Origin: Rhizaria sp. SCN 62-66
Taxonomy: Eukaryota
DNA: 64,000 nucleotides
Assembly (NCBI GenBank): GCA_001724265.1
Contig: MEDY01000208.1
Location: 1 to 64,000, forward strand
Reading direction: 5' to 3'
How positions within the stretch are numbered: position 1 is the first letter of the stretch; every line of letters starts with the position of its first letter. A program made the translations under genes and the position numbers. Positions 1,762 through 57,033 of this stretch are shown here, piece by piece. The notes beneath the pieces were generated by a model. It did not search any database. It had not been told where the DNA came from and saw only the letters and a list, made by a program, of their open reading frames with translations.

Positions 1762-4700
1762 ATGGCAGAGGATGGAGCTTTGTGGGTGACGGAGCTTATT
1801 AAGCCATCGAGCCACACACCCATGTACGGACCTGCGACTCCCACACCACCACAGCTGACCGTGTCATGCGCCCTGCTGCCGTCCGAGAGTAGTGCACCTC
1901 AAGAGCAACTCGCGTTGACTGCCGCGCCCCCTGCGTCTCGCGCCTGGCTCTCGGACCTCACTCCGTGCCCGCTCCCGGCGCTCGTTGCGGGCCCGCCGCT
2001 GTCTTCGCTCTACGCGAACGCGGACCTGCCGCCCGGCGTCGACGGCTCGGCCCGCTCGACGGCCACGGAGCTGTGCATGCGATTTGCCTTTCCGAGCGCT
2101 GCCTCGCACCCTGCGCTTAACACCGTACAGCTCCCCAGCGGCGTCCGCGCGGCGCCCGCCGCCGCCCCCGTGCTTGCACCGGGACTCGAGCTGCTTACTG
2201 ACCCCACGCGCGTGCGATGCGCGGCCTATGAGGCGCTCTACGCATGGTCTTCCAAAGCTTCAGTTTCTCCGCAGCCTCCACAGCAACCGCAACAGCAACA
2301 GCAACAGCACGAGCAACAGCGGCAGCTTGCGCTCTCGGCGTAGCATCAGTGGGAGCCTATACTACTCCTACCCGACGCCAAATTTCAGCCGAGACTGAGG
2401 CCGCAGTCACCGTATCTGCCGTCTCACTAGTCTTCGTCACCACTGTCCGCCGTATCATCTCTGTCCTCTGTGCCGTCTCTGTTGTCCGCGTCGTCGTCAC
2501 GACCGTCTCTATCGCCCCTGTCGCTGTCCCACTCATCATCGTCCCAGTCGCTGTCCAGACTGGCTATCCGCGCTTCACCCACGCTCGCGGCCGCACTCAC
2601 CGCCGCGCTCAAGCCAACACCTACACCAGCTCCTGCACCCGCGCCAACACACGCGCAAACGCAAGCGCCAGCGCACACTTCGGCACTTTCAGCGCCTTTC
2701 GCGCCTGCGCCCGTCGTGGCGCCCGTTGTTGCAGCATCCGCTGGCGCGGTCGCAGCGCCCGCTGTTGCAGTGCCAGCGGCCGCAGTACCCGCCGTCGCAG
2801 CGACCGCAGTTGTAGTGCCCCTGCCGCCGCGGTTGCCGTTGGTGCCGGCCGTGCCCGCGCGCGCGCCTGCCGCGGCCGCGCTGTCGCAATTCTTCGTCCA
2901 CCACGCGTTTAACACAAGGCTTTCGTGGGCGATGGTGACGCCGCCGGCGCACACGTCCCCGATGGTCCGCGCGATGAAGCGTTTCCTGCGGGCTCACGCT
3001 CGGCACCCTGACACCGCGCTGCTGCCGTTTGTCTTGGCGGAGCCCGACGACGCCAACACTGCCGCCATCTGCGCTCATAACGCCACTATGCGCACTGAGA
3101 ATACCACTGTGCGCACTGCGAATACCAATGATAGCGCTGGAGCTGGTATTCCCAGCGCTGCGAGCGTTCATGCCCCGACAGCACCGTCGCGGCCGCAGCC
3201 GACCGGCGCCGCCGCACTGGCGGGTCTTCTGCCCGCGTTGGCGCCCGGCGGGTCGACCGTCGTTGCACTTGACGCGCTGCTTAACGTGCACGCGCCTGCG
3301 GGGCTCACACCGTCTGCGGCGGAGGCGGCGGGTGCGCGGGCAGCGGCGGGCGCACGTAGAGCGGCGGCGCGTCACGCTGCCGCTGCTCAGCCGCAGGAGG
3401 CGAGTGTGCCGCGCCACCAGCAGGCGCAAGATGTTAATCCCGCGGCGATTGCGCAGGGCTGGGAGGCTGAGAAGAACGAGCGCGTGGCGGCGATGTTCGC
3501 GGCAATCATTGCGGATGCGGCCTCGGTCGCTGTGGAGTTGCTCGACGCAAACGCCGAGTCAGACGAAGAGGAGGTCGCACACACTGGCACTGACGTAAGC
3601 GGCGGTGAAAGCGCGCATCCCAGTGAGATGAGCGGTCATGAGTCATACGATGACTGCGCTGTTGTTGCCGACAGTGACGAGGATTGTGTTGAGGCCGTGT
3701 TTACTCCATCTGAGGTTGAATCCGGGTCACATTCACCAGCTGAGGATGCAAACGCGAGTCACAGTGCAAACGATGCGGGTGAAGATGGCTTTGCCACTCG
3801 CCAAGATGACAGTAGCCACTATAATGACTATGGCAGCGACAATGACGGTCATGTCGCTGGCGGGCTTGACCCTACTTGCGCGACTGCAGCTGAAGATGAT
3901 CCCGCCCGTGAGCACGAACACGACACAGGCGGCCTTGAGAGCGAGCATGCGAGTCGAAGCACCCGTGAGAGTGAAGGTGACCGCGCTAGTTTTGCTGACA
4001 ATATGGATGCGAGTGGCAATGCAAGTGCGGATGACAGTGGCAGTAGCAGTACGACTGATGCGGAGGTTGATGATGTTAGTTCGGATCGTGACAGTCCTAG
4101 TGCGAGTGCCAGCGCCAGCACGAGTCACAGCGACCATGACACTGACCGGTCTCGCGCGAGTGCCCGCGATGGTGAGAGTGCCAGCGCGAGTGAAAGTGAC
4201 GGCGACACCGACAACGGCAGCGACAGCAACTATGCCCGATACCTCTCATTTACGGCCAGGGCGACGCAGCGGGTCAAGGCCCGTATTGCCCGCGCGCTCC
4301 CGGCCGCCCGTGCCGCCGCCGCGCTGGCCCGTGCCTCGGCGGCCGCGGACAGCAGCACGGCCTCGCTCACTACTCTGGCCGCCGGCTCTGGCTTCACTGG
4401 CTCCGGCTCTGACCCCAACCCCGACGCAGATCTTGTTTCCGCCGAAGCTGCGGACGCTGCAGACGCCATGACCAGCCTGCGGTTTGCTACGCTGTGCTTC
4501 GGGACGGCGATGGCACAGCCGCTGTTTCTGGCGCTGCCGCGTGCCGCGCTGAGGCGCTTCCTGCGCTCCAGCGAGCTCAACTGCGGGAGCGAGTTTGCGC
4601 TGCTCCAGGCCGTGGTGCGCTGGGGCCGCTTCCGCCTGCGCGCGTATGGTCTTGACGACACGGACCCCGCGCTGGTGCGGCTCGAGCTGCATGATCTACT

Positions 4701-7560
4701 GCCGTTGATCCGCTTCGGCGCGATGACTGCGGACCAGATCGCGATTGTCACGCAGGGCGGCGCGCTGGCGGAGGACTTTGACGCCGCGCTCTTCCGCCGC
4801 TGCCGCGCCACCGATGTCATCCGGATGCCCGCCGAGTACATCGCGTGCGCGGACCACGTCACGTTTAATTATACGACACAGCCGCCGTCGTCGTTGCCGC
4901 CGCCGAGCTCCGAGTCAACCACTGGTGGTGGTGGTGGTGGTGGTGCTGCTGCTGCGACGGTGAAACCGCCAGCGTCAGGCCCGACGGAGAGTATGAAATA
5001 GCTGGCGCGTGACGACAAATTCCTCTCGGAGCTCCGGCCCCCGACAGCGGGGCTGGCGTGGTCGGCGGACGCGCCCACGGCGGCGGAGGTATACCTGCCT
5101 CGCTTCGCTGCCCCGCGCCGTCTTCGCCGCGATGCTGTGACAGACATTGATACAACAGCGGACCTAGACGCGCATTAGGAGACGACACCGCGCTGTCTGT
5201 TTACTGCCAGCGAGGTTCGGTCACTGCGCAGTCTCAGCGAGGCCGCCAACCGGGGCTGGGCCCCGCTGTTGCGCGCCACCGCGGCCGCCGCGTCGCAGGA
5301 CCACAACTTCGCGGTGCAACACCGCTCCGCAGCGGCCGCCGCACGTGATCGCAGCGCCGCGGCGCCGCGGCGCCGCCTTGTCGACTCGAGCGACGACGAC
5401 GACGACAGTGACAACGACGGCAACCGCGATGATGACGAACGCAGGCGCCGTGAGCGTGAAATCGCCACAGCGCCTTTGATGCCGCTGTTTATTCGCGCCG
5501 CGCCGCTGCTCCCGGGCGCTCTGGAGACGCTGTACCCTGCGGTGGAGGCCCAGCCGTTCTCCGGCTTTCGCTCTTGCTCTGGTGACGACGAGGAGACAGC
5601 GGGGGCGAAGGCGAGGGCCGCGGCTGCAGATAGCTTCACGCCGTGGGTGCTGCGCTGCGCGGGCGACTAGGCCACGACGGCGATCAGTCCCCCAGTCATT
5701 GTGTCGCACTCACAGACGCCCAGGGCGGCCGCGTCGCGGTTCGAAAGCCGTGCGCCAAAGTCGTACTCCGCGATTGTAGCCAATCTGCGCATGAGGCAGT
5801 GTCACATGGGCGGAACCGCTGCGATGCTGCGGCATCTGACCGCTGACGCTGAGAGCAAGATTCATCCCACGTCTCATCAGCTACCCAATTTGGCCACAAC
5901 ACCTGTGTTTACAGCAACGGCTCCGCCGATATGCGCAGAGGAGTTGAACACCGACGGAGAGCTCTCCGACTGCAGCCGAAGCGCTCATGGCGCGAGCGAG
6001 TCCGCGCATCAGTTGCCGCGCGTGCCACGTGTACCTGTGCTGTGCACGATGTACACACTGTCGGTACCTGTGACTACGCTCGCAAATCGCCCTGCTGACT
6101 GCCACAGCGCCTCGGCGACGCTGACTGTGCGCCACTGCTACGGCGCGTGCACAGGCATCAACACGAATTACTCAGATAACGGCGGTTTCGACTGCGGCTG
6201 CTCTGGCCCCGCGCCGCCGCTGCCACATGGCTGCGCGCGCGCTACGCTGGCGCTGCCCGGTGCGGCGTTTCTGCGGGCCCGCAACGCGCGCGCGGTGATG
6301 TGTGCGTGCGTGCGTGGCGTGCACTGGCCGCCCGAGGCGTTGCGCCGCGGCTCCTTTGAGCTGCTGCCGCTGATCGCGCTCCTGTGCGTTAGCTGCGGCC
6401 TCCTCCCGCGCATGGCCACGGTGTGGGGGCCGATGTTCCTTGGCGCCAGTCTCGACCGGCTCGCGCCGCCGGTGCTGCTCGCCGCACTCTCACGGCTGCT
6501 GCCCGTGGACCCCGGGGCGAGCGAGCCGCTGCCGAAGACGGGCCGCGTGCGGCCTGAGCAGCTGCACGGCGTGGCCAACGAGCTTGCGCGGCCGCTGGTC
6601 GGCCCGCTCGCGCCGTGGATGATACGCGCGCGCTGGGGCCTTGGCTGCATGGCGCGCGGTCTGCTCGGTCTGTCGTACACGCTCGTGACGACGCCCGCGC
6701 TGGGCACGCTCGCGGGCGTTCTTGCGCCGGGGCTGCACGGGACGTTCCTCATTCTCTACGGCGGCGTCGTGCACGAGGCGCTGCTTCGCTATGTCTCGCG
6801 CCAGCGCTACCGCAAGTCGACCTGGCGCGAGGCGCTGAGCGGGCTGCCCTGGCTGACACTCTCGGCCACGACAGCCTCGATCGCGCTTGTGCACATGAAG
6901 CTTGCGGGTGTGCTGGCGATATCAAGCACGGTCGCGCTGGCGCCCGCGATCGCCGTTGCCTCCGGGCTGCATCTGCTGCGCGGCACGGACTGGGTGCGGC
7001 GCTCTCCGTGGCGCGAGGCCGTGGTGCGTAACGAGATCGCGGACCGCTACGGGACGCTAATGTGCTTCACGCGCCTGCTCGCCGCGCTGGCGTTGCGCCA
7101 CATGCTCGCTGTGCGCTTCGACGGCGAGTCCGTGACGCCCGACATCATCCCGCGCCCGGTCAAGGACCTGCTGTGGGCGGGCACGTGGCCGATGCGCGCG
7201 CTGTTCACCTGGTCCTTCTCGTGGGACGGACTGCGCGGGGTTGCCGATGCCGTGCGCGCCGCGCTGCTCGCGCCGTGGGGCAGCGGCGACGCGGTGCGCT
7301 GGTACTCGCCGCTTTGCCAGCTGCCACGGCCCTACTACCGCGGCCTTGCGCGGCGGCTCAACCCGCTGCTGTGGCTGCGCAACTGGCTCAGCCCGCCGCG
7401 CATCTTCGCCGCGGTCCCGCTGCTCGAAGTGTATTTCGGCACCTCGCTGGCGCTCTCCAAGACGGACTTTGGCGACAGCGGTGACAACTCAACCGTCGAC
7501 AGAGATCCTATCGATATTGCAGCGCATTTGAATGTTGCTGTTACTTGCGCGTTTCCCTAA
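1762..7560 (+). CDS. Large BACK-domain protein (~1932 aa) with low-complexity regions and a hydrophobic multi-TM C-terminus. It is one reading frame only if five in-frame TAG codons are read as sense; otherwise a pseudogene.
   Basis: Track ORFs 1696-2343, 2470-5001, 5269-5670 and 5701-7560 share one frame. They are separated only by TAG at 2341, 2428, 4999, 5176 and 5668, with no TAA/TGA until TAA 7558-7560. BACK-like motif PLFLALPRAALRRFLRSSELNCGSEFALLQAVVRWG...LHDLLPLIRFGAMTADQI at ~4520-4745. The start ATG is tentative. Confidence 0.6.
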
Positions 7561-8693
7561 ATGCACAAACTGAGTGGTGACTAGCTAAGCTTTGCTCTTC
7601 GGTTCTGTTGCATGTAATACAGTACTACGGACTAGTTTTAACTTAAGCTTATCGATTTATAATATAAAGTAAGGATACATATGATTCGAGTGATTTAGCA
7701 ATATGTACGCGTACATAACTGTTGTTGTGGGATGCAAAGGTATGAGGTTGTGTATTGAGCGCTGCAAAACTGGCGCACGATTGTAATTGTGAAAAGAATG
7801 GGTGGTTTTGATGATACGATACGATACGATTGACTGTGCTACTACTATTGGTGAAGAACAACGACATGCGGTGTCGCGTTGCAGTGCGCGGGACTCTCTG
7901 TACCAGTGAGCTAGATACAGAGAAAGGTCCACCGCGCACTGGACGCAAATCAGAGAGACTGCGTACTGCGCGTGGTGCGAAAATCGCACTCCAGACAGGC
8001 AGTGTCTTCACCAAATCATCTCACACACACCACACACTAAACACACACAGATCTCGATGGATTTAAAACAACGGTTGTTGTGTTGAATATGAACTGAGAG
8101 AAAAACAGACAAAGAAGAACCTAAAATAATAACATTACTTTACTAAGGAAAGAAGGCAACAAGAGAACAAACAACGCGAGATAGATTTATCTCACATCTT
8201 CGTCTACACTTGTTGTTGGTGTCTACATACTTGCGACTCACACACGGTTGCTCTGTGAATGACGAACAACACAACCAGAGCGACATCGACAATCACGCCG
8301 AAAACGCGGGTCATCGTCATGTTCATCAAGTACTATTGCTGCAGCAGCTGCTGCTGTTGCTGTTGCTGTTGTCGCAGTAAAGAGAACTACCAAGACACGG
8401 AGGTATCAGATTAGCAAGCTCACGGTACTCAGCCCAAGAAAATAAGGACTTTGTAATAGAAACACATCGCAACACACGAACGTCAATACGAAGGACAGAG
8501 ACTCGCAAAGAGCGTTGTCTAGGAAAGCGCCTATGTGAGCGGAGAGTTTAAAAAGAAACATAATTCTGTGATGGCTTGCTGCGTTACACGCGGCGGGGAG
8601 GCAGTTCAGTTCAGCGCACTGCATTGGGATGATTTACACTACACCACAGTGCGACGCCTGCGCTGGTGGCGGCGGAGCGTCTCGCTGGCGCGC

Positions 8694-11186
8694 TTAGTAG
8701 TGGCGCTCAAGAACGTACCAGCCGAAGGAGCGGATCATGACCTTGTAGTACGAGTCCGGGATGGCGGCGTCGAGCAGCTTCCAGGCGTCCTCGACCATGT
8801 CGCGCGCCACCGCCGCGGAGCCCTCGATGGCGTCGACGGACTGCAGCTTCTGGATAAGCTTGCCCACCACGGCCGGGTCCTGGGGCTTGGTCTTGAGCAC
8901 GGACCAGAACTCGGTGCGGTCGGCGGCCGACAGCTTGGTCATGCCGAACGCGACGGGGTAGGTGACCTTGCCCTCGCGGAGGTCCTCGCCCTTGGTCTTA
9001 ACGTCGCCCTCGAAGCCCTTGAGGTTGAGCACGTCGTCGATGATCTGGAACGCGATGCCGATCGACTCCATGTACCGGCCGATGACCTCGATCTGCGTGG
9101 GCGTCGCGCCGCCGATGAGCGCGCCCATGCGCGCGAGGTTGCCGGCGGGAACGGCCGACTTGAGGCGGTGCGTGCACGTGACGGCGCGGAGCAGCTCCTG
9201 CGGGTCCTGCTCGCCAGAGCAGATGGCGTCCATGCGGTAGTCCTGGCCGTAGATGTCAAAGGCCTGGCCGGAGTGGCCCGCGCGCAGGGTGAGGAAGTAG
9301 AGCTCGTAGAGGCGCAGACGCATCTCGGGGGTCAGGTCGGGCGTGCGCGACTGGAGGACGTCCATGGCGAGGAAGTAGGCCGAGGTGCCGACGTTGATGG
9401 CGATGGGCTCGCCGTGCTTCAGGTGGCACGTGGGGCCGCCGCGGCGCGTGACCGACTTATCCTGGATGTCGTCGACGATGAGGGAGCCGACGTGCATGAG
9501 CTCGGGCATCGCGAGCCAGTGCTGGAACTTGAGCGAGTTGCCGCCGACGCAGTCGATGCAGAGCAGGCAGGCGTAGGAGCGCCAGGCCTTGCCGCCGCGG
9601 TCGATGATCTCGCGCATCGGCAGGATCATCGTGTCGTTAAAGACCTTGAGGTCGGCGCCGTCCATGTAGTGGTCGTTCTGCTTGTCGGCGAGCAGGTCAC
9701 GCGCCTGCTCGTACGTGGGGTTTAGCGGCATCACGTTGCGGACCTCGTCGCGGACGACATTGGAGATGATCTTGAAGAACTCATCAAGCGAGCCCGTGTC
9801 GCCGAATCCGTGGCGCTCGAGGAAGGCGTTACCCGTGACAGGGACGCCGTCGATGGAGCCCGTGACGCGCATGCGGCCCTCCCAGAAGGACGGCTTGGCG
9901 ATCAGAGTCATGATCTCCTGCTGCGGCATGATGGCCTCGAGCTGGAGGTCGATCTTGCCCGACGGCACGGTGAGCTTCCACGACAGCGGGTATTTGGCCG
10001 AGGAGCGGACCGAGGTCCAGAAGTTGGTGCCCTCGAGCTCGAGGTCGGGGTACTCGACGCGGGACGAGTCGGCGCCGATGACGATGGCGAAGTTGTCGTA
10101 GATCTCGCCAGTGCGCCAGTCGACGAGGTTCGTCGCAGTGATGTCGCGACCGTCCTCGAGCTGCATCGAGAACCAGTTCCACGCGTATGAGGCGTCCTTC
10201 TCAGCCTTGGACTCCTCCTCGACCTCGAGCTTGGGGGCGGCAGCGGGGGCGTCGGAGTCCGTTGCGGCGGCGCCAGCAGCGCCGGTGGTCGCGGTGGCGG
10301 CGGCGGCGCCGTCGGCGTCGGAGGCCTTGAGCTCCTCGTTGTGCTGCTTGGTGTAGACGTTGTCGCGGATGCCGCCGCCGAACTCGTGGTCGTACCACGC
10401 GGCGCCCGTGATGGGGATCTTGCGATCACCGAGCGTGATGGAACCCACCATCTGGTTGCGCGGGATGAAGTAGTAGAACATCGTCTCCTGCTTGACGCCG
10501 ACCTGGACGACGCCGCCGTGGCCCTGGCGGGTGGGCTTCTTCTGCGGAGTCAGCACGACCTCGAACGAGACCTTGGTGGTGGGGAAGTTGACACCCATCG
10601 AGTACGTGGTGTTGTCGGCGTTCTTGCGGAAGTAGTTGCCGTTGCCGTAGTCAAGGTTGAGCTCGGTGGTGGAGACAACGCAGGCCTTCTCCATGGGCAC
10701 GTCTGGAAGGGGGACATGGCCCTTGTTGGCGATCTCGAGCATGGCGCGCGCGAGACGCGAGTCGAGGTCGTACATGCCGTTCTCGAGCTGATACTTGAGC
10801 ACCTTGGGCGTCTCGGCGTCAACGTACGTGACGGGGTAGTAGGCCTTCTTGGCGACATCGAGGACGCCGCCGGAGAGAGCGTGAAGGTGCTGCGGGTTGC
10901 CGTCCTTGTCCTTGCCCTTGAAGACGCGGAAGAAGGACGCAAAGACGGAGAACTCGTTGCCTTCGGCGTCCTTGGCGTGCGAGTTGACGTACCACCACTC
11001 GGTGTTAGCGGAAGCGTGGGGCAGGTCCGCAGTCATGAGGTCGATGTCGCCCTCGGCGGCAGGCCAGTCGGACGGGCGGACGTAAGTCTTGTTCAAGGCC
11101 TCGGCGGTGGCGTGGGCCATGCGCTGACGCTTCTTGTCGTTGCCAATCAGCTCATCGGCAGGGCGCACCTGCTGGGTAGACGACAT
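8694..11186 (-). CDS. Fusion protein (830 aa): N-terminal AttH/CrtC-like (lipocalin-like double beta-barrel) domain plus C-terminal trans-prenyl diphosphate (GGPP-type) synthase
   Basis: N-part motifs: LPHASANTEWWY, AWYDHEFGG, YAWNWFSMQL, FWTSVRSSAKYPLSWKL, FWEGRMRVTG. C-part motifs: RGGKAWR, FARM LIVDDIQDKSVTRRG, GQAFD, SARM FQIIDDVLN, GEDLREGKVTYP. Intronless, strong C/G third-position bias, TAA stop. Confidence 0.9.
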   Translation of the reverse strand: MSSTQQVRPADELIGNDKKRQRMAHATAEALNKTYVRPSDWPAAEGDIDLMTADLPHASANTEWWYVNSHAKDAEGNEFSVFASFFRVFKGKDKDGNPQHLHALSGGVLDVAKKAYYPVTYVDAETPKVLKYQLENGMYDLDSRLARAMLEIANKGHVPLPDVPMEKACVVSTTELNLDYGNGNYFRKNADNTTYSMGVNFPTTKVSFEVVLTPQKKPTRQGHGGVVQVGVKQETMFYYFIPRNQMVGSITLGDRKIPITGAAWYDHEFGGGIRDNVYTKQHNEELKASDADGAAAATATTGAAGAAATDSDAPAAAPKLEVEEESKAEKDASYAWNWFSMQLEDGRDITATNLVDWRTGEIYDNFAIVIGADSSRVEYPDLELEGTNFWTSVRSSAKYPLSWKLTVPSGKIDLQLEAIMPQQEIMTLIAKPSFWEGRMRVTGSIDGVPVTGNAFLERHGFGDTGSLDEFFKIISNVVRDEVRNVMPLNPTYEQARDLLADKQNDHYMDGADLKVFNDTMILPMREIIDRGGKAWRSYACLLCIDCVGGNSLKFQHWLAMPELMHVGSLIVDDIQDKSVTRRGGPTCHLKHGEPIAINVGTSAYFLAMDVLQSRTPDLTPEMRLRLYELYFLTLRAGHSGQAFDIYGQDYRMDAICSGEQDPQELLRAVTCTHRLKSAVPAGNLARMGALIGGATPTQIEVIGRYMESIGIAFQIIDDVLNLKGFEGDVKTKGEDLREGKVTYPVAFGMTKLSAADRTEFWSVLKTKPQDPAVVGKLIQKLQSVDAIEGSAAVARDMVEDAWKLLDAAIPDSYYKVMIRSFGWYVLERHY

Positions 11187-13314
11187 TGTCTGTACGGAGT
11201 GTCAAAAACAAAGAAGGACAGGTGAGCGGACGCGAAACTGGAAATGGCGAACGACGGGCGGAGAGGGGGTTCGTCAGCGGAACTCGGAAGACCGCGTTAC
11301 ACGGGCAGGCGAACTTTGGGCACGATGAAAAAAGATATTTAAATAAAAAACAACTCGTTACATTTGGATCTTTAACTTTTTCGTCGGTTGAAAGAGCTTT
11401 CGGGCCTAATTTATGCAGGTGCGCGGGGTCGACGTCGACAGCCCTGCCTCCTGCCCCGTCGAGAGCTCGCAAAGTAAGGGCCAGGGACTGTGAGCACCGA
11501 AGACCGATCAGAGACTTTGGCTGGCGACGCGCCACTGGCGGCCAGCGCGCCGTGGGGCGACGGGCCATGCAGGCGCAGCGGCCACCCGCGCGATCTCGGC
11601 CAGATCTCCGTCAATAAAGGATCTAGCTTGGAATAACGGGATTTATTGCAGATTGCTCCGGATGACGCTTTAGATCCGTTCCGCATGGAGGGCTTGTTGC
11701 TCCTTCGCATCGCCCCAAAGGAGGCCCTTGCGAGTAGCAGATCAAACCATTTTGGAGAAGCAAATTAGATTCGCGTAGGATATCCTTTAAGTATATTATT
11801 ATCGCCGGCTGTTTTCATGCTGAGATTCAATTTTATCTCTTTCCGCGCTCATCTTGCCTGTCGAGCGGCGGGTTCCGGCGATGACCGTTTCCAATTCGTC
11901 ATCACCTCGATTTCCCGCGCCACTCCTGCCTGTGCTGCTGCTTGTCGCCGAGCGCGCGTCACAACACCGAAAGCTGCGCTGCACGCTACCGGCTGAAGTT
12001 TGCTTCTGATTGCGCACGGTGACGCTGCTTCACTGCGTGGTTGCGCGGCGACAGAGCTGTTCGGCCATATACCGACGAAGGGTGCGGATTGCTGGGTGGT
12101 GCGTGGTCTCGCTGCTATCAACCCGCGCGTGAAGACTGCAACGTGCGATTTTATCGCAGTTTTTGACTGCAGACAATGCCTTAGAGCTATTATTAGTAAA
12201 CACGGACGCATTTTTTATTCGATGTCGATATTCGCGTGGGTGCTGCGGATGAAACGGTGACTCCGCCTGAGAATGACGTAAGATTTGTCCTGCTCGATTG
12301 GACTGCAAGTGATATTTTTTGTTGCCTAAGTGATATTTTGAGACTCGAACTGTAGACGAAGGCTGGGTATATGGTGATTTCAACTGATCGTTTTAGTATT
12401 CATGAACGATATTGTCAGTTACTGTGTTGAGATATGATGCTTTCGTTCTGGGGCACTTCAGTCGCCGCTATTTAAGACGCGTCGCTCGAGTTAGAATGAA
12501 CTTTATGTTGTCCTGCGGGATGTTCACATCGATGTGTAGAACCTATCTTCGTCTGTGCTTGCCACTATTTGAGTTCATTCGCAATTGGACGCTCCTACGA
12601 CTCGCTGTCAAGTACTATGACGCCATACTGAAGAACGAAGAACAACCGTATCCGAGGCCGCGGCAATTTGAGGTACTTGAAGATACATAATTAGCATTGG
12701 AGACTGGAAATAAAGCACTATCGGATACCTGGCCCTTAAGTGGCAGGTGGGTACAGGGGAGCGCTGCCGAGATACACTTCGTTATTTTCAAGTTCTGGAG
12801 GGCGACAACGAGCCTCACAGCGTGTCGACTTCAAGCTTGAAGAAAGTACCGTGACATGACTTATACGCGATATATATTTGGATTGTAGTGGGATATTCTA
12901 GTGTATCCAAGTCGAATTTACTCAAAATGCAAATTTCAGATTTTCTATAAGCATTCTTAGCGCACGCAAAGTGACTTGACGTGACACGAGGAGCAGCGGG
13001 GGTGTTACGAGCTTCACAAGTAACGTATTTTCAAACCTAATTGGGGACCTTCTCTGACCGTCAATGAGGCAGAGACACGCAAATTCAGGGGAACTAGCAT
13101 GTTTTATATGCTATATATAGTCATTTATTTTCGCCCTGCTGGTTCTCGGAGCGACGTAGACACTACCAACGTCGCCGACCGAAGTTGGGGTCGGGACCGA
13201 AGTTGACGTCGTAATTTTTGTTTCTCACACCGAGTTTTTTCCTGTATTGCCTTGACTATGCACCGCCTAGGAGGTGCGTCGTACAACTCGACCGGCATTC
13301 ACTCTCCACTCCAG

Positions 13315-15996
13315 ATGGACGACTCTGACTCGCCCCCTTCGCTGCTGAAGCTGGCGGAGGTGTCAACGACTTTGCCCGTGCGCTCTGAGCTCTGCGCAGA
13401 ACCGTTGCGGGTACTCACAACGCGCGTCCTCGTGTATGACGAAGCCTCGGACAGCGAGGCCGCATTGCCTTGGATTCTGCGCAAGGACCCGCTCAACGGC
13501 GGCTACAAGTATATTGTTCTGTTTGCCTCAACAGTGACCATGCTTGCGTTTTCGTCCGTGCTCTCGGGCTCTGTGTATATCATTCCACTCGAGGACGAGT
13601 TCTCGCTCACGCGCTCCGACGCCTCGCTCTTCGTCTCGCTCTCGCTGGGCATCTTCTGCGCCGCGACAATTTTCATCTCCAAGATTGCTGACCGCATCGG
13701 CATGTACGCCACCACGGTCATCGGCTACCTCGCACTCTGTCTGGGCTACTTCGTGCCGTCGTTCCTGCACTCGTACGGCGGCGTGCTGGGCGTGTACATC
13801 GCCTTCATCGGGCTCGGCGCCGCCGCGCTGCAGATGATGCCGATGCTCTTCGTCCAGGACTGGTTCGAGCCGCAGGGCCGCGTGGGCTTCGCGCTCGGCG
13901 TCTCTCTCTCCGCCGTCGGCCTCGGTAACATCGTCATGACGCTCTACATGGAGCACTTCATCGACACGGCATCCTGGCGCGTCTCGCTCCGCTACATGGC
14001 GCTGCTCACGCTCGCGCTGGGTGTCGTCTCGCTCGCCGCCCTCCGCGCGCGCGCGCTGCACCCGCACCGCCAGCGCGGGCTTGCACTCGCCGCCGTCTCT
14101 CTCTTCCGCGCCGCGCTGCACGGCGGCGACGCGGCCGTGCGCGCGCCGCCCGCGTGCTGCCCGCCCGGCGCCGCGCTGCACCACTGCCTCGGCCACCAAC
14201 CGCCTGCGCCCGCCGTTGCCGCCGCCGCTGCCGCGAGCGCGGGCGCGCGCGCGGGCGGCGTGACTGGCGGCGGCGTGCGCCACGAGCTAGACTGCTCGTA
14301 CCCCGGCTTCGAGGCACTCCGCGCGCACGCCGACGTCGTCGCCGCAGGCCCCGCGCAGCCGCACGAGGTCTCCGCCACGGCCACCGTCGCTGTCGCCGCC
14401 GGCGCCGCCCCCGGGGCGGGCCCGCGGCAGTCGCCGGCTGCGGTGTGGCTGAAGGACGCGGAGCTGGATGACGTGGACACCACCGCCGCGGAGGCCGCCG
14501 CAGAGGCGCTGCACGATGGGCTGACCGCGGGCGAGCCTTTCTTCCGCGTGAGCATGTTCTACCGTCCGCGGTTTGTGCTGTTCTTTGTCGCCGCGCTTGT
14601 CGGCACGTTCAACTTCTACTTGCCGACGGTGCACTTGGTGCCACACGCGGAGGATATGGGCGTCGGCGACCCGTCTTTCTTGCTTATCATCATGGGTATC
14701 GTCACGATTTGCTCGCGTATCATCTTTGGGCTTGCCGCAGACCGCATTGGTGGCGTTAACGTGTACACCATCGCGTGCACACTGCAGCTCGCGCTCATGA
14801 TACTCTGGCGCTACTCGACCACTACCGCGCACTTCCAGGTACGTTTGGAAAGAATCTTCGGAATTGTTTAATTGTTTCACTCTGTCCCGCTGCAACATTT
14901 TTTTTTGCGTTGAATCTACTGTATTTCATTGAATTATCTTCTGTTGCATGTATCTACATGTGTTTCAACACAATTGGATATCAGTTCACAACTTGCAATT
15001 CTGATGCACTCTATTCGATCTTACTTTGGCTTTTTTTTTGCTGCTCAGGCTGTGGCCGCGATGTACGGCTGCGTCGGTGGCGCGTACATTGTTGGTATCA
15101 CGGCCACAATTCGCATGATGAGCTTGCCGATCGAGCTGTCGAACTCAATGGACTGGGTGCTGGGCGTTGGTTTCGCCCCCGGCGCGACGCTGGGTGGCCC
15201 CATCACGGGCTGGGCCTACGCTGCCGAGAACGAAAACTACGTCCCCGTGCTCACGGGCTTCACCATCTCGTCCGCCATCTCCGTCGCTATCATGCTCGTG
15301 CTCGCGCTCTACAAGCCGCGCGCCAACACCCCGCGGCCGCCGCAGCCGCGGGCCGTGGCGACGGACTCCGCGGCCGTTTCGCTGCACGGCGGCGCGGCCT
15401 TCTCCGGCGACGACGCCGCGCGCTTGGAAGCCGCCCGGCCCTTAGACGCCGCACCGGCGCCCACGGTGGACATGCCCGCGCGCCGCCCGCCGCTCGCGTC
15501 GCGCATTGGCGCCTTTAACGACGACGGATCACACTCGGACGCGCACTCGGAGACCAACTCGGACGCGCCTCTCGACGCCACCGCGGGCGCCACGGGCGCT
15601 GCTGCGTTGTCCTCGACGAGCTCTGCGCACACCAGCGAGGGCGATATCGTGCGCAAGCCAATCGGCGCGCGTTCGTCGAGCGATATCTCAATCGCGATGA
15701 CTGACGGCTCGGGCTCCGGCTCCGGCTCTGTTGCCGGCACTGCCTCTGTTGCTGAGGGCCAGAGTGGGCTGACCAAGAGCTCGACCGCTAAGTCGACAGG
15801 CACCCTGAGTCCCGCGGGTTCCACGGTTGGTGAGCATTCGCTGGCGCCAGTGCTGGTGAAGTCCGAGTACATGTCGGGTCGCATGTATATCTCACGTGTT
15901 CTCTCGCTTTTGCGCACAATGGCCGTGCGCAGCGCCCGGGCGAGCAAGCTCGCGGCCACGGCGCCGAGGGACTCCACGGCCGCTCCACCAGTCTGA
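13315..15996 (+). CDS. MFS transporter, monocarboxylate porter (SLC16/MCT-like), ~823 aa; exons 13315-14838 and 15049-15996
   Basis: Two hydrophobic helix bundles with MFS motif A variants (SKIADRIG, GLAADRIG), QDWF..RVGFALG and FNFYLPTVHLVPHA. Intron CAG|GTACGT...CTCAG (14839-15048, AT-rich, phase 0) joins track ORFs 13252-14871 and 14929-15996. An alternative upstream ATG lies at 13258. Confidence 0.85.
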
Positions 15997-16852
15997 GTTC
16001 TAGGACCTGCGTCTTTCATTACACAACTGCGCTCTCAGTCAATCAGTCAATCGCGCGTTGCGCAACGCAGAAGTTGAAGTGCTGTTCGCGCATGACTCGC
16101 ACCAACCATATCATGATTTCAAACTGTTCTTCATTACCACTTTCTTCATACTTGTTTGGGAATTAATATTATGTCTGTCACCAGCAATCTTTAGGCTTCT
16201 CTTTATTCATGACTCAAGTTTGTCTTCGCTCAGTGCTTCGGCATGTCTGCCTTTAAAATCTCCATGCTGGCACACTATTTGTTAATGCAGCTGTTCGTTC
16301 AACTACTTGACATATGACTGTCTTCTGCGACCTTTCCTCTATCTATTAATCTCTTGTACATTACAACAACAATAACAACAATAGCAGCAACAACAACAAC
16401 AAAAATTGTCCTGACATTGTCACATCATATCGTCACTGTTACTGTGTAAGGATGCTGAGATCCTCCTCGTTGTCACGCAAGCGCGGATACACTGACATGA
16501 TGACACTATACTCAGTCAGCGCGCTGAGTGTTGTCTGCAGTGTGTGTCTGTGCCCTTCAGACAGGTCTTTGGTCTGTAAACACAGCGCGGCCCATCTCAC
16601 GCATGTACACGTGATTGCGCCTGCGACAGAGTCTGTCTAAAACAACGACGTCGTGGTAACGGCACCGGCCATTTGAACTGTTTTTAACGAATGTTCTCGC
16701 TTGTAGGAGAACGGATTAACACACGATTCATACAAATTTCAACACTATGATATTCACACTCAAGATCACAACTGATTGACCTTCACGGCAGACAGCAGTC
16801 GACCCGCGCGATGCCACTCAATCGCTTTTGTCACATGCACTAAACACTGCGC

Positions 16853-17449
16853 TCAACCCTCGCGGTCGAGCCGCGCAAGCTCCGCCGCCAGGTCAAACTT
16901 CCCAGCGTTAGCGTTGTTGCTCTTGTTGATACGGTCGAGATCTTTCTCAGTGAGAATGCCCACCACCAGCGGCTTCTCAGCACCAGCGCCTGCGCCCGAG
17001 TCAGCCGCAAACTCTGCCTCTTGCGCCTCGTGGCCGTAGCGCTCGCGCAGGTGGCGGTAGCGCTTGAAGCGCGCGCGGCCCTGCTCCTCGCGCAAGTGCC
17101 AGCGGCCCTCAACCACGGCTGCGCGAACAGCGGCGTCGTCCGTCAGGTGCGCGTGCTTCGCCAGCTCGCGGCGCGCGGCCGCGCGGAGGTAGTCGGGGTC
17201 GTAGTGGTCGCGGGTGAAAAGCGCCACGCGCTGAGGCGGGTGGTGCGGGCGAGGTCGGGGTGTGAGCGTAACGGAGTTTGGTCAGAAGATGTGAGAAGGA
17301 GGTCAGCGAAGGATTTCGAGAGAGATCTGTCACGCACATTCTAGCAAAAAGTAATACAAACAACTAGATCACCGCATACTACGCACCTTGAGAAGGTCTT
17401 TAACCATAGCCTTGGTCTTGGCGGTCACGGGCGTGGGGGCAGCGGACAT
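16853..17449 (-). CDS. ETFRF1: LYR-motif protein, ETFRF1/LYRM5-like, 146 aa; exons 17449-17387 and 17230-16853
   Basis: Spliced product MSAAPTPVTAKTKAMVKDLLK|RVALFTRDHYDPDYLRAAARRELAKHAHLTDDAAVRAAVVEGRWHLREEQGRARFKRYRHLRERY fits the LYRM5 pattern (LYK..L...RDY...; KYR.MK.RY). Intron AAG|GTGCGT...TCAG, 156 nt. Confidence 0.7.
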
Positions 17450-18288: not shown

Positions 18289-20906
18289 TCAAGCCTTTGA
18301 CGCAAGGTAGGCCTCGTGGTCGGCGCGTGTCGCCAGGCGCGCGCCCTCCTGCCCAATCTGCGTGCGCAGACACTCGAACCCGAAGCTCTGCATCGAGCTC
18401 TCGAGCGCGCTCACCGGATCCATCACAGCGGCGGCGTCGGTCGAGGCAGAGGCGGCGGCGGCGGCGGGCGCGGCGGTAGGGACTGCGGCGACGGGACCCG
18501 TGGCGGCGCGGGACGGAGCAGAGACCGACGCACTCGCGGAGCCGCTGAGCGGACTAGGGCTGGGGCTCGGGCTGCTGCCACGCTCGCTGGACCCGCCCTC
18601 GGAGGCCGCAGTCGCGGGCGCGGGGCACGTTGTCGGCGCGCCCGCAAACACCGCGCCCGCGATCGCCGCAGGCGGGGGCTGCGCGCGGCCGCTGCCGTTG
18701 CCCGCGGCGGCGGCGGCGGCGGCGGCGGCGGCTGCGCGCTCTGAGGCGGGTTCGTGGATGAGCGAGGGCGCCGACGTGAGCGCAACTGCGGCCAGCGCGG
18801 AGGCCGACGCGCCGGCGCTGGAGCCCGAGGAGAGCGCGGACAGGGACGCCGCGGACGGGATCGTGGGCAGTGTGAGCGCGATGGTGCTCAGAGCGCTGCG
18901 CTTGAGGCCCGTGGTGGAGCCAGACTGCGCGCGCACGGGCTCGTACGCCTTGAGTGCCACACGGCCGCTCGCGGGGCCGCCGTTGGCGGCGCCGGCACCA
19001 GCCCCGGCGGCGGCGGCGCCGGAGGCGAACTCGGTGATGGCGGAGCGCGGGCTGGTGACGCCGCCGCTGCTGCTGGCGACGGAGGATGCGCCGTCGAGCG
19101 CGGGCACGACCTGCCCTGCGGCCGAAGCGAGCGCGCTCTTCTTGTTGACGAGCGGGGGCAGTAACGTGATTGCGCAGCCGCCGCCGCCGGCGCCAGTGAG
19201 CTTGGTGGGCATGCTCATGGCCTCCGCGCAGCGCACGACACGGTCCAGCGCGGGGTGCCCCACGCCCAGCAGCGTCAGCAGCTCGTGGTTCTTGCTCAGC
19301 AGCGGGCCTACGCACTTAAAGAAGCCCTGCGCCAGCGCGGGAGCTGGCGGGCCGACGCGCGCCGGTACGAGACCAGCGGCTGGCCATCGGCGTCAACGAC
19401 CGGCATCGCGGTGGCGTCGGCGTCGGCGCTGTCGTCGCTGTCGTCATCGTCATCATCGTCGTCGTCGTCGTCGTCGTCGTTGTCGAAGTCGATGGCGTCG
19501 TCGTCGTCGTCACTCTCGCTGTCATCGGGACCCAGCCGGTCATCGCGGCGGTCCTTGGCCTCCGCGGCCTCTGCGGCGGCGAGCTGCTTGCGCGCGCGCG
19601 CGATGGCGGCGTCTGCGTCCCCGGCGACGCGCTGGAAGGCGGCGGCAAACTCGCGGTCCGCGTCGGGCGATGATGGCACCGCGGCGGCGGCGGCGTCCGA
19701 GTCGAGTCCGGCCACCCCTGCGAGCCTGCAGTAGGCCTTGATGGCCGAGACGACGCGCGTGGCGATGCCGTCGATGGCCATGAAGACGGGCGTCGCCACC
19801 TCGGGCATCGCGGCCTTGAGCGCGGCCACGCGCGCCACGAGTTGCCGCGTGTCCTTGGGCACGCGCGTATTCGTGATCACGAGTTCCACAGACGGGGGGA
19901 TGCAGCCGGACGGTAGGAAATGCATCACAGGCTGCACCGGCGCAACGACGGACGCAGCAGGGGCCGATGCCACAGCAGCGAAGGCAGGAGTGACCGCCGG
20001 AGTGCTGATGCAGTCCTTGCTGTTACTGTTCGCCGCGCTGGCGGAGGCGTGCGCAGTGGGGTGGCACTGGCGCGTGGCGCTGACGACGGTGTCGAACAGG
20101 CGCGCGGCGGCCTCCGCGGGGTGCTCCATGCGGCGGCGAAAGACGACGACGCCGCCATAGACGCAGACGGTGTTGTCGAGCCCCGAGCACACGCCGTGCA
20201 CGAGGCGCTCGCCCTCGTACGCCCACGCGTTGACCAGCGCGCGGTCCAGCGCCACGGCCGCGGGGCTCTCGGGCGCCGCGGCGGTCGGCGCGGCCGCCGT
20301 CGGCGCAGTGGCGCGGCAGAGCGCGAAGAAGCCTGTGGCGAGCGCAGAGCAAAACGACGCCGAGGAGCCCAGACCGGAGCCGATGGGGAGGTCCGAGGTG
20401 ATGGAGACCGACATGGCGTGCGCGGCGCGCGACATAAGCAGGCAAAGCATGAGAAAGATCTGCGCAGGCGCGGCGTCGTGCAGCCGGCCGCCGTTGGCGC
20501 GGATCTGCTCCATGCGCGCAGCCACTTGCGCGGGCGGCGCGGCGGGCAGCGGTGTCAGCGTCAGCACACTAGGGACCGCGTCGAAGTTGTCGCGGACATA
20601 GTCCACCGCGGCAGCCATCTCGGCCGGCGAGGACAGAACAGCGTCAATGTCCCAGGCCGAAGGGAAGAGCGCGTCGAGCTGCTGGCGCGTCTGCTCCAGG
20701 TCCGACAGGCGCCAGGTGCGGGCGATGTGAAGTTCCTTATCGCTGTGGGCGAAGGAAACCGTCGTCGGGTCGTTCGAAGGCTAAAAGTCAGCGTACGTGC
20801 GACGGTCAACCACGGCCGCAATGGCATGTGAGCCGTGCACGACGCTGTGTTCACCGGAAAGAATCATCTTTCCGGGTGCCGAGGCCACAAAAGGTTCGAA
20901 GTACAT
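18289..20906 (-). CDS. MVK: Mevalonate kinase (GHMP family), ~870 aa with long insertions; contains an in-frame TAG at codon 42 and one frameshift around 19310-19395
   Basis: ATG 20906 gives [25 protein letters not shown] (GHMP motif 1), followed by [36 protein letters not shown] and [10 protein letters not shown]. After the frameshift come [20 protein letters not shown] and [13 protein letters not shown] stop. Confidence 0.9.
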
Positions 20907-22894: not shown

Positions 22895-23191
22895 TGGTAT
22901 CTGCAGTGGTCCAAGTGGAGTGTGAAGAAAGGAAGGATTCACCATAAATAACGAATCATTGTTGAGATATCAATTTGCGAGAAGATAGATATATAAACAA
23001 ATACTTCACAACATATACGTGCTTTCCTTGTGACGTTCAATTCGACGATGTTTCAATGGTCAACGTTCTGCTGACACATACATGTTTTTCGCGAGGCTCT
23101 CCTCTGAGGTGACTGTGAGCAAACTAGTTTTAAAGTTGTTTAGGTTGAAGAACAGAGTTATTTTTATTAATAAATAAGTTTAACAAATAAG

Positions 23192-46336: not shown

Positions 46337-46368
<32 letters not shown>

Positions 46369-48971: not shown

Positions 48972-51900
48972 TTACTCAGCGGCGGGCGCAGCGGAGGCAC
49001 TGGTCGACGCACTACTACTGCTGCTAGACGCGGCCGCTGGCGCCGTGTGCACGAACACGCGGAGTTCCTTGCAGAGCCCGGGGATCTTGGTGACGTAGAG
49101 CAGTCGGTCGAGCAAGTACGCGACGTTGGCGTGTGTACGCTCTTGCACCACCGGGTGGCCCATATCAAGCCGCGTGAGGTACTTAAAGCAAATCCCGGTG
49201 AAGAGCGATGCAATCTCGCGGAAAATTGCGTCGCGGTGACTCGGGTTCAGCAGCTCACTCAGCGCCTTGTGTAACGCCGCGGTCTGACGCAATAGCATGC
49301 GGATGCACTGGTCCGGCTTACCCGCCTCGTTCTGGTCCTTATCTTTGCTCTCGGTGTTGTTGTCCGCCGCAGCCGCGGCCGACACGGCGGCCTCAGCGGT
49401 CACGGCGGCGGCAAGTGACGGCGCCGCCGCAGCCGCACGCGCCCAGTCCGTCACGAGCAGCTTCTGGCACGCGGCTTCGCAGATCGATCCAACCATGTTC
49501 GCGAGCTTCGAAAACACCTCCGCGCGGTGGTAGTCTAGATCGCGGCCCAGCGCATCAAGAGCCTGGAGCAATACGGCCTGTTTGCCGGAGAGCCGGCGGG
49601 CAAGCGCGCGGCGCAGCACGGGCAGCTGCGACAGTGCAAAGCCCACGGCCTGCGCCGCGAGCGCGAGATGCGTTGCCGTGACGGCCTTGACACCGACCGT
49701 CTGCATGCACTGCGCGCCGAGCACGAGCTGGCAGGACCGCGTGTTGAACAGCTTGATGAGCTCGGCGGCCTTTTGCACCGCGGCGGCGGCCACGGCGGGG
49801 ACCTCAGTGGCGCATTCGACGTGTTCCCGCAGAGCGTCGACGAGCACGAACACGGCCTTAACCGCGGGGAAACCACCGCGCACGAGCTCGTTGCCGCTAG
49901 CGCTGCCGATGCTGCCGCCGACGCCGCTGACGCCACTGAACGCGTTGCTGAAGCTACGATTAGATGACGAAGGCAGAGGTGAGGTCGAGGTCGGACCGAA
50001 GCCGGCGACGGCGGACGCAGGCATGACCACATACAACATCGGTGTAGCGGTCGTAGCGGTCGCCGCCGTCGCGGGAGCAGTCGCGTTTTCACCACCACCA
50101 TCAGCAGCGGCAGCGGCAGCAGTGCTGGCAGCAGCGGCGGCGGCAGCGGAAGCGGCGGCGTTGGCCTCGGCGGTGGCTGCTAACGCCGCCGTGACGGCCT
50201 CGTCGACTTCCTCCTCCGGCCCCGGCGCCAGATTAGGCGTATACGCGCAGTCTAGCGCGCGTTGCACGCTCTCGGGCGCGGGGACGGGCGCCCAGAGTTC
50301 AGCGTCGAGCGCGGCCGAAAGCTCAGACATCGCGCGGGCACTGGCGGCGGCCAAGAACGCCTTAGCTTGATCTAAGAGAGTCGCGCGGAGACCGTAAAAG
50401 GCGCGCCCGCAGAGCTGTTCGGCGTCGGCGACAAGGTCCAGTGCTTTGTCGACAACTTGGCGCAGCTCCTCCAGAGTCAGCGAGGCGTGGGCGGCGGCGC
50501 GCGCGGACAGCATGCGGCCGACACGGGCCTGTGAGGCGAAAAGCAAGATTTAACACAAGTAGATATAGAGCGGTTTAGATGTGAGTATTGGGAATTTGTA
50601 GTTTGAAATACGACTAAAATAAATCGTTTCGCAAAACTTGATATTCATTTCAATAATTAGATCTTTTGATCGAGAGAAATGTTGTAATCGTACCTGGAGG
50701 AACTCTGCGAGCTGGTAGAGTGAGCCCGTCAGCTCGGCGGACAGAGCCGCTGAAGACGCCGCGGCCGCCGTACAGCAGCGGTCGGCGGGCGGGCCCCAGC
50801 GCACGGGCTGCAGCCGCGGGGGCGCCAGGACCGCGTTCGCCGCCGCCGTCGCGGCAGCGGCCGCGGCGTTGGTGGGGCTTGGCTCAGGAGACTTCTGCTG
50901 CTGTTGCTGCTGTTGCAGCTGTTTGCTGTTGGTGTGATTATTCACAGCGTGAGCGTTGTTGGCGCTGCTCATCACGGGGTAGGGCTCCGCGGGGACGGGA
51001 TCCATCGCCCGCGCCACGGCAGCCAAGTGCACCACGACAGTCACGCCTTCCTCGGCCTCGACTGCACCCGCACTCTCACACGCGTCCAGACCGTGACCGT
51101 GAGCGTCGTCAGCCGTCGTTGCGGCGGGTGTCGCGTGGGTCACGGCGGGGTACCAGGGCCGCAGCCGACCGCGCGCGACGTCAACCACCGTCACCCCAGT
51201 GCCAGTGGGCCCAGTCAGCGCCGCGTCAAACGCCGCACGGAGGGCCGTGGGCGCGGCGGCCTCTGCGGCGACGCCTGCGACGAGTAACGCAAGGGCATGG
51301 GTACGGGTAAGGAGCGCCGTGAGCGTGCCGCACAGAGGCACAAAGAAGAGCATGAAGCGCGCGTGGCTCAGCGCGGCCAACCTGGCCGCCAGCGGCCGCG
51401 GGCCGCCGTCATTTGCAGCTGGATTCGCGACGGATGCACTCGCAGTGTCTGCGTTGGTGTCGGTGGCGGACTGGACAGGTGTGCCGACGGCAGTACTTGT
51501 GGTACTCATGGTACTCGTGGGGCCCGGAGAGCCAGCGGTGGCGTTGTTGTGCGGCGTCGGCGGCGCAGACTGGGTCAGAGGCGTCGTCCCCGCCTCCGTA
51601 GTATGGACCAGGAGCGCCGAGTTGTTGCTCGCATCTGCTGCGGCGGTGTCGGCGGGCTCGACCACCGCAAGCAGCTCCGACACGGCGCGCGCCAGAGTGA
51701 GCTTCACCGCGTCACCGAGCGCGTCCTTGAGCGGGCTCGCCAGCGCGGTGAGGCCGCCAAGTGAGAGGAGGATGCGGAGGTGGGCGCGCGCGGTGCGGGC
51801 CTCGGCGCGGGTCAAACCGCCCGCGGCCGCCACCGGGTCCTCGTCCTCCTCTTGATCCTCGCGATCGGCATCATTAACCTCAGTCTTGGACTTTGCGGTG

Positions 51901-52266: not shown

Positions 52267-52300
<34 letters not shown>

Positions 52301-55967: not shown

Positions 55968-57033
55968 TTAGAGCTCCTCCTCAAACTCGGCGTCGAGCTC
56001 GACGTCGAACTCGGCGTCGATCTCGGCCTCGGCCTCAGCCTCGAGGTCCATCTCGGCCTCAGCCTCAGCCTCGATCTCAGCCTCGGCGTCGACCTCAGTC
56101 TCGAGCTCGGCCTCAGCGTCAACCTCAGCCTCGGCATCAACCTCAGCCTCGGCATCAACCTCAGCCTCGGCATCAACCTCAGCCTCGGCATCAACCTCAG
56201 CCTTCAGCCTCGGCCTCAGCGTCAACCTCAGCCTCGGCCTCGGCGTCAACCTCGACCTCGGCCTCGGCGTCAACCTCGAGGAAGGCGGGGGCCTCCTCCT
56301 CAGACTCGGCCTCAGCCTCGGCCTCAACCTCCTGCTCCTGCTCAGCCTCGCCCTCAGTCTCCTGCTCGGCGTCGGCCTCAGCCTCCTGGTCGGCGTCAGC
56401 ATCGCCCTCCTCCTCAGCCTCAGCCTCAGCGTCGACCTCAGTCTCGGCCTCAGCCTCGAACTCGGCATCAGCGTCGAGCTCGAAGAAGGCGGCAGGCACG
56501 ACAGCGGGCTGGACGAAGCCGGGGCGCTTGACAGCGACGCCGGCGGGGAGCACGTCAACGACGTCAGCGGTGGCGATGACGAGGTCGGCGGCGTCCTCCT
56601 CCTGACCCACAACGGCGGCCTCGGCGATGTCGAGCTCGCGGCGGGGCTGGGGGATGGTGAAGGAGCGCTTGCCAATCTGGACGGACTTAGCGCAAGAGTT
56701 CAGGGCAAGGTTCGAGTCCTTGGCACGCAGCTTCTCCACGGCCTCGGACGACTCGTCAAGGCAGGCGTTAGCGGTGGGAGCCCAGACGCAGTTGTGGAGG
56801 GTGACGCAGGTGTCGCACGACTTGGCGGTGACGCACTGGACGCCGGGCACCTTGCGGGTGGCCATGATGCCGTCGAGCTTGGGGGCAGCGACAACCTCGG
56901 GCTTCGCGGGCGCGGGCGCAGCCGCGGTAGTGTTGGCAGCCGGGGTGGTGGTGCTGTTAGCAGCCACATCGGCGGACACGAGCGCGGCCATGACGGCAGC
57001 GATGAGGAGCACAAGGACAGAGCGACCCTTCAT
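55968..57033 (-). CDS. Secreted PSI-like paralogue with a long acidic AEAEVD-repeat tail, ~354 aa; +1 frameshift at ~56203
   Basis: Signal MKGRSVLVLLIAAVMAALVSA; PGVQCVTAKSCDTCVTLHNCVWAPTANAC...SC. The acidic repeat continues from track ORF 56197-57045 into the frame of 55968-56675 once one base is removed from gct gaa ggc tga. Confidence 0.75.
56119..56203. repeat. 18-bp coding tandem repeat (tcaacctcagcctcggca) x4 plus a partial copy, inside a ~500-bp degenerate array (55975-56480) encoding AEAEVD
   Basis: Four exact copies read directly at 56119, 56137, 56155 and 56173. Confidence 0.9.

Follow-up and report, generated by a model that had tools for sequence, protein, structure and literature searches.

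In-frame UAG codons in otherwise intact genes of an uncultured GC-rich eukaryote point to a probable reassignment of UAG as the only stop codon changed

The DNA analyzed here (the window) is a stretch of 64,000 nucleotides (nt), positions 1 to 64,000 of contig MEDY01000208.1, and it contains two genes in which TAG codons lie in frame: a long gene at 1762-7560, referred to as gene 1, and the mevalonate kinase gene (MVK). The code of the organism from which it derives is probably one in which UAG is a sense codon and UAA and UGA are stops. The TAGs are real, in frame and located inside single, otherwise intact genes, and at least one of them is present in a contig obtained from polyA RNA. The five TAGs in gene 1 and the one in MVK, which had already been listed in a preliminary description of the window, were confirmed by translation of frame +1 and of the minus strand. 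The relevant features are given below; L001 and L002 are further contigs, X1, X4 and X5 are sequencing runs, and P0009 and P0010 are database proteins.

1762..7560, plus strand: gene 1, 1,932 codons, from ATG at 1762 to TAA at 7558-7560, read by translation
2341..2343, plus strand: in-frame TAG, gene 1 codon 194, in an insertion that L002/P0010 lacks
2428..2430, plus strand: in-frame TAG, gene 1 codon 223, on the same X1 and X4 contigs as TAG 2341
4999..5001, plus strand: in-frame TAG, gene 1 codon 1080, kept in L001; end of P0009
5176..5178, plus strand: in-frame TAG, gene 1 codon 1139, kept in L001
5668..5670, plus strand: in-frame TAG, gene 1 codon 1303, kept in L001 and crossed by a polyA-RNA contig of X5
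18289..20906, minus strand: MVK, from ATG at 20906 to TGA at 18289-18291, split into two frames at ~19336-19340
20781..20783, minus strand: in-frame TAG, MVK codon 42, between the N-terminal APGK..GEH motif and the GHMP_kinases_N domain
19336..19340, minus strand: position of a 37-nt gap in MVK, responsible for the apparent frameshift, by comparison with an X1 contig

Frame +1 of gene 1 contains exactly five internal stops, every one of them TAG, and neither TAA nor TGA nor a frameshift. Because TAG accounts for only 60 of the 657 stop triplets found off frame in coding sequence (9%), a frame of 1,932 codons that is interrupted by TAG only is not a chance open reading frame (ORF). The coding score was best in frame +1 over most of 1750-7400, the exceptions being the regions near 2200-2650 and 3550-3900, and when all ORFs of the window were scanned for TAG readthrough, coding-scored internal TAGs were found only in gene 1 and MVK. 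After the internal TAGs, GC content is 0.67-0.73; after most true stops, it drops to 0.32-0.57. The predicted protein is of low complexity and comprises a BACK-like domain (approximately residues 905-958; Pfam, 1.4e-4) and a C-terminal multi-pass membrane domain. It is fast-evolving (39% and 33% identity to homologues), and its gene has the weakest codon bias, with a GC content at third codon positions (GC3) of 0.67-0.82. The homologue P0011, which is 1,492 amino acids (aa) long, is an uninterrupted protein that comprises both the BACK-like region and the membrane domain at the C-terminus. An AFP motif is located at the C-terminus, or only a few residues away from it, in all three proteins compared (those encoded by gene 1 and L002, and P0011); thus, in gene 1, all five TAGs precede the part that encodes the conserved protein end.

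The contig L002 (6,305 nt) carries a homologue of gene 1 (41% identity), which is the same gene as that of P0010. Its frame is open from 1 to 5532 (1,844 codons) except for two in-frame stops, at 2452 and 2779, both of which are TAG and neither of which coincides with a TAG position of gene 1. The gene ends with TAA at 5533, after which GC content drops to 0.45-0.49. Irrespective of whether it stems from a relative or is a paralogue of gene 1 within one genome, it is another gene broken only by TAG. As judged from the sequences of P0011 and L002, gene 1 is a single gene. P0009, which is present on four database contigs, stops exactly at TAG 4999, and P0010, which was cut off by a gene caller using the standard code, stops at the first TAG of L002. 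What public predictions hold are therefore fragments, of 689 aa (P0009) and 985 aa (P0010), of proteins of ~1,930 and ~2,010 aa. P0009 and another protein of the window, P0012, are recorded in the database on contigs of 162,918 nt.

Contigs from X1, which may be the source sample, show no differences from the window over 1500-4583, 4964-18125 and 20505-21400. The last of these intervals is also free of differences in a contig from X3, a run of another study, which confirms the MVK TAG independently. L001, a contig of 1,767 nt from a different collection, differs at 2 of its 1,767 positions and keeps all three of the TAGs it covers (4999, 5176 and 5668). TAGs 2341 and 2428 are covered by a contig of the 2025 run X4 (1858-2575) with one mismatch, the position of which was not placed. 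In the polyA-RNA run X5, depth was observed in 25 of 30 bins, the five empty ones being mostly intergenic, and contigs matching gene 1 are located at 2854-3134, 5513-5871, 6081-6674 and 7066-7330. The second of these is colinear with the genomic sequence over TAG 5668, without a joint.

The MVK product matches mevalonate kinases in the PDB at 7e-29, and the alignment is free of gaps over the TAG. The same is true for the comparison with P0134, an uninterrupted MVK of 1,035 aa, to which 169 of the first 192 aligned residues are identical (88%). One of the two frameshifts mentioned in the preliminary description was located, in MVK at ~19336-19340; it corresponds to a 37-nt gap, and an intact form of the gene occurs both in these runs and in a close relative. 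GHMP_kinases_N is encoded in frame A, which ends at a TAG at 19308, and GHMP_kinases_C in frame B (18292-19392). The match of frame A to P0134 extends to residue 681 and that of frame B starts at residue 693, which leaves 11 residues of P0134 without a counterpart in the window. A contig from X1 (depth 50) contains 32 extra letters between 19340 and 19336 which, together with five repeated bases, constitute an insertion of 37 nt, that is, of the length class that restores the MVK frame; its translation by hand, read by eye and not the output of a tool, matches the P0134 segment. In the window, the gap is flanked by a direct repeat of five bases. The long run contigs listed leave 19131-19554 uncovered, so that the gap is putative for the window's own strain.

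X1 and X3 also contain a second sequence similar to MVK, which varies at many positions over 19164-20454 and has a depth similar to that of the window's version; at 20409-20454, X4 shows only the window's version. This second sequence could stem from a sibling strain, or it could be a divergent allele or a paralogue. P0134, with 88% identity at the N-terminus and large insertions, may stand for it, and the X1 contig with the 37-nt insertion may belong to it. At position 19893, all four runs compared have T versus C in the window, and in its MVK region the window may be a mosaic composed of two sequences that resemble each other.

The window contains 19 complete gene units, which end with TAA in 11 cases, with TGA in 8 and with TAG in none. 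An earlier tally of 18 complete genes, with 7 ending in TGA, thus has to be amended; its 11 TAA ends and its lack of TAG ends stand. L002 is also terminated by TAA rather than TAG. Assuming a TAG share of 15-30%, the probability of finding no terminal TAG in 18-22 stops is P = 0.0004-0.05. The only long ORF ending in TAG (55972-57108, plus strand) was rejected, because it is the antisense of a better gene on the minus strand (0.05 versus 0.59 score per codon). Several ends are backed by homology: gene 1 and L002 end with TAA just past the AFP motif; MVK ends with TGA 12 residues past an IGQEGARL motif, as compared with P0003; and a polyprenyl (GGPP) synthase fusion gene (GGPPS fusion; see below) ends with TAA, P0012 covering 99% of it and relatives 93-99%. 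With these 19 window ends, three of them homology-backed, UAA and UGA are supported as working terminators.

In-frame TAA and TGA codons had been stated to be absent outside frameshifts. Four genes do contain them, namely VPS54 (50550), the gene for an MFS transporter (14869 and 14911), an EF-hand/adenylate kinase (ADK) gene (35558) and a fourth gene (22232), in every case at an intron-like stretch. The stop-bearing junctions in the four genes are AT-rich, and each opens with GTAMGN as its 5′ site; at VPS54, EF-hand/ADK and 22232, the AG at the 3′ end was read as well. The introns and junctions read start with GTACGA, GTACGT, GTACTT or GTAAGT. Introns of the window are few and far more AT-rich than the exons. 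The stretches are as follows.

50529..50693, minus strand: VPS54 intron, used as a control; in frame, 165 nt, AT-rich, TAA inside, from GTACGA to CACAG; the sole intron delimited and measured
14841-~14913, plus strand: intron-like stretch in the MFS gene, AT-rich, stop inside
~35525-35710, plus strand: intron-like stretch in the EF-hand/ADK gene, AT-rich, stop inside
~22160-22231, minus strand: intron-like stretch in the fourth gene, AT-rich, junction at stop 22232

Which amino acid UAG would specify was approached via the residues aligned with the TAGs. For the MVK site, 151 homologues were searched for the N-terminal motif, and the 110 containing it were aligned. The column is mixed (E 24, S 17, T 13, Q 12, R 11, A 8, K 7, V 4, plus others) and contains no W. 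The closest relative, P0134, has A at this position and the next, P0002, has S; in solved kinases, it is occupied by Q (human), R (rat), T or S. In gene 1, TAG 4999 aligns with R (P0010) and P (P0011), and TAG 5176 with N (P0010/L002) and A (P0011). Together, the sites of gene 1 and L002, which lie where conservation is poor, are opposite R/P, N/A, S/L, V and R. The proposal that UAG encodes Gln, the assignment in NCBI table 15, thus receives no support from the data: the MVK column is mixed, with A and S in the nearest relatives, and the gene 1 sites face R/P, N/A and S/L. By precedent only, Gln would still be the likeliest residue. The core of the original claim, UAG as sense and UAA and UGA as stops, fared better than its Gln part, since everything that was tested (the TAGs in L002, the independent assemblies and runs, the RNA contig colinear over a TAG, the lack of intron features and the conserved C-terminus) is consistent with it.

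If UAG has been reassigned, ribosomes would translate it as an amino acid and terminate only at UAA and UGA; it would be decoded by a tRNA with the anticodon CUA, or by a near-cognate tRNA, and eRF1 would lack recognition of UAG. A number of points weigh against such a reassignment. No tRNA gene was detected by ARAGORN in the window, L001 or L002 (and no eRF1 gene in Pfam scans of the window's main ORFs). Every TAG occupies a variable column, so no residue can be read from it. Random nonsense substitution would give TAG 55-65% of the time in these genes. Under this model, finding TAG in eight of eight cases (including the two in L002) has a probability of P ~0.01, which is suggestive only. Five of the six TAGs of the window are in gene 1, which has a probability of P = 2e-4 under uniform usage; thus, something specific to gene 1 is involved. 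The sample is small, with eight TAGs in three genes and 19-20 stop codons, and L002 may derive from the same genome, as a paralogue, instead of representing a second lineage. The only mismatch of the RNA contig over TAG 5668 was not placed relative to the TAG. Finally, if the gap is real, it is possible that the window's MVK is a defective allele whose TAG arose by nonsense mutation. Because the gap may mark such an allele, the MVK TAG would weigh less than the seven TAGs of gene 1 and L002.

It is unlikely that UAG is instead ambiguous, acting as a terminator in some contexts and being efficiently read through in others, either in the manner of Condylostoma and Blastocrithidia or in a programmed fashion. 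The great rarity of TAG and its clustering in one gene would fit such ambiguity, as would the fact that four of the eight TAGs are followed by C, a nucleotide that makes termination leaky when it comes after a stop codon. Also, with 19 stops sampled, terminator TAGs elsewhere in the genome are possible. However, five readthrough events per mRNA would leave almost no full-length protein unless each was efficient, and the region downstream of the TAGs is conserved and codon-biased. TAG ends none of the 19 genes, and a local structure or sequence signal shared by the TAGs was looked for around them and not found.

Slightly less likely than ambiguous decoding is a standard code combined with correction of the TAGs at the mRNA level through site-specific editing, either A-to-I (adenosine-to-inosine), which would convert UAG into UGG, or U-to-C, which would give CAG. 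Editing of the fungal A-to-I type is nevertheless the most serious rival. In filamentous ascomycetes, it converts premature UAG into UGG and prefers U at position −1, often within UAG (PMC11156358). According to the same source, it yields genes whose only lesions are in-frame TAGs, which is what is seen here. Intron starts such as GTAAGT and GTACGT are compatible with a fungus-like organism, and the only RNA contig over a TAG has the one unplaced mismatch already mentioned. However, ascomycete editing operates at the RNA level on a standard code, in which ordinary TAG terminators are to be expected, and 0 of 19 genes in the window end in TAG. It also predicts hairpins, and none of the eight TAG contexts folds better than shuffled sequences at z < −2 (z −1.4 to +2.0); for a hairpin or other recoding signal there is likewise no support in these contexts. 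Trp, the residue predicted by A-to-I editing, is absent from the MVK column (0 of 110 sequences) and from the aligned gene 1 sites. A>G and T>C differences occur in about the same proportion in RNA and DNA (18:7 in X5 versus 12:6, 10:7 and 12:5 in the DNA runs). Among the matches of MVK, a single fungal protein is named, and identity to it is only 31%.

Pseudogenes and hidden introns are unlikely, and both are less probable than editing. In the former case, the code would be standard, gene 1 and this copy of MVK would be decaying genes or null alleles, and TAG would merely be the form that nonsense mutations most often take in a GC-rich genome, as its share of 55-65% among single-step nonsense changes allows. 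The 37-nt gap in MVK with its direct repeat, and the presence of an intact MVK-like sequence at similar depth in the same runs, would agree with decay. Against it stands, above all, that gene 1 has acquired five presumptive nonsense codons and yet no frameshift, TAA or TGA in 1,932 codons, a pattern that L002 repeats with two TAGs in 1,844 codons. By our estimate, which was not computed, five nonsense hits would come with ~100 substitutions and several indels. Given typical ratios of indels to substitutions, the fact that 1,932 plus 1,844 codons contain neither a frameshift nor another stop would make a much stronger case against decay than the eight-of-eight count. Moreover, codon bias and the conserved C-terminus persist past the TAGs, gene 1 is covered by polyA-RNA contigs, the TAGs are stable across runs dated from 2015 to 2025, and none of the 19 stops is TAG. 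That the TAGs reside in unrecognized in-frame introns and are spliced out is very improbable and was rejected: the genome does hide stops in such introns, as exemplified by the VPS54 control, but real introns are AT-rich and start with GTAMGN, whereas every 100-nt window of gene 1 has at least 50% GC, none of its five TAGs has an in-frame GT..AG candidate bearing the 5′ motif within 400 nt, candidates in MVK would delete conserved residues that align without gaps, and the X5 RNA contig is colinear over TAG 5668.

The window as a whole has a GC content of 62% (0.54-0.71 per 4-kb block). GC3 is 0.74-0.93 in 12 trusted ORFs, indicating a strong codon bias, and the intergenic spacers are AT-richer (GC 0.34-0.52). 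The span from a GC3 of up to 0.93 in coding sequence to a GC content of 0.34-0.52 in intergenic and intronic sequence is thus considerable. The preferred terminator is TAA, in spite of the GC-rich codon usage. Pfam identified nuclear eukaryotic genes, encoding Nop53, Vps54, a WD40 protein, a protein kinase, an adenylate kinase and an MFS transporter, in addition to a KH protein, MVK, a fusion of a CrtC-type lipocalin with a polyprenyl synthase, and a tRNA U5-methyltransferase-like protein of 1,528 aa. An Atlas search with the protein kinase led only to generic eukaryotic kinase clusters. In the gene content of the window, no signs of a ciliate were found. A search against Rfam gave no matches, and no relatives were found in scans of genome contigs with P0002 and A1 or in a scan of viral contigs with A1. 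DNA of the window is present in metagenome runs from bioreactors, wastewater and activated sludge, from several studies between 2015 and 2025; its source is therefore an uncultured organism.

The lipocalin-GGPP synthase fusion (835 aa; 8694-11201, minus strand) had 820 matches, among which the named ones, at 43-45% identity, are proteins from metagenome-assembled genomes of Myxococcota. Unnamed metagenome matches are closer (50-58%), and one match (49%) originates from a euglenid transcriptome set. The fusion may be a bacterial gene taken up by this eukaryotic lineage.

In the window, TAG occurs in frame 6 times in roughly 15,000 codons (about 0.04%). Its rarity, and its concentration in a fast-evolving gene with weak codon bias, would fit a young reassignment or a codon that is decoded inefficiently; the weak bias and fast evolution of gene 1 are what is expected of a poorly decoded codon that is tolerated mainly where selection is weak. 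It is possible, and is proposed here tentatively, that the code change is at an early stage, in which UAG was dropped as a terminator and is now returning as a rare sense codon in a lineage or small clade of GC-rich wastewater eukaryotes, where it would so far be tolerated almost only in fast-evolving, weakly expressed genes. If so, this would be the intermediate that is predicted by the codon-capture and ambiguous-intermediate models and has seldom been observed, and a natural early-stage reassignment on which models of code evolution could be tested. It would also be an independent data point on how eRF1 loses a single stop codon. In practical terms, it would be a warning that standard-code gene calling truncates proteins on eukaryotic contigs from wastewater metagenomes, as P0009 and P0010, both of which end at an in-frame TAG, would illustrate.

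Only a few lineages are known whose nuclear code gives UAG and UAA different meanings. The features of a code with only UAG reassigned are in-frame UAG in intact genes that are colinear with their homologues, which was observed in MVK, gene 1 and L002, and absence of UAG from true gene ends, which was observed in a small sample, with none in the 19 window units and L002. A search of the literature turned up no description of UAG used as a sense codon by a GC-rich eukaryote from wastewater. Two non-ciliate cases of split meaning are described in PMC5304391. One of them is Iotanema spirale (Fornicata), in which UAG encodes Gln and is uncoupled from UAA (PMC5304391). As in Iotanema spirale, only UAG would be reassigned here, with UAA and UGA remaining terminators; unlike there, the residue is suggested by precedent only, and UAG makes up just ~0.04% of codons and is almost confined to gene 1. 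The organism of the window is GC-rich, intron-poor and found in wastewater and bioreactors. The other case is the sainouroid rhizarian exLh, in which UAG encodes Leu; the same paper reports 384 in-frame UAGs in 71 genes, at conserved Leu positions, and an under-use of UAG in highly expressed genes, suggesting inefficient decoding (PMC5304391). The window shares with exLh what is probably a UAG-only reassignment outside the ciliates. It differs from exLh in having 6 TAGs in ~20 genes, none at a conserved column, and in that Leu occurs only once among the aligned residues. Among ciliates, an independent meaning of UAG is described (PMC11687900 and PMC10553269) for phyllopharyngeans and for an oligohymenophorean code with UAA as Lys and UAG as Glu. 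In the present case, too, the meaning of UAG would be separate from that of UAA. Ciliate genomes are generally AT-rich, however, whereas the window has 62% GC, shows no ciliate sign in its gene content and uses TAA as its main terminator. Thus, the code described here is probably a further instance of a known but rare change, in an organism in which UAG is still a very rare codon.

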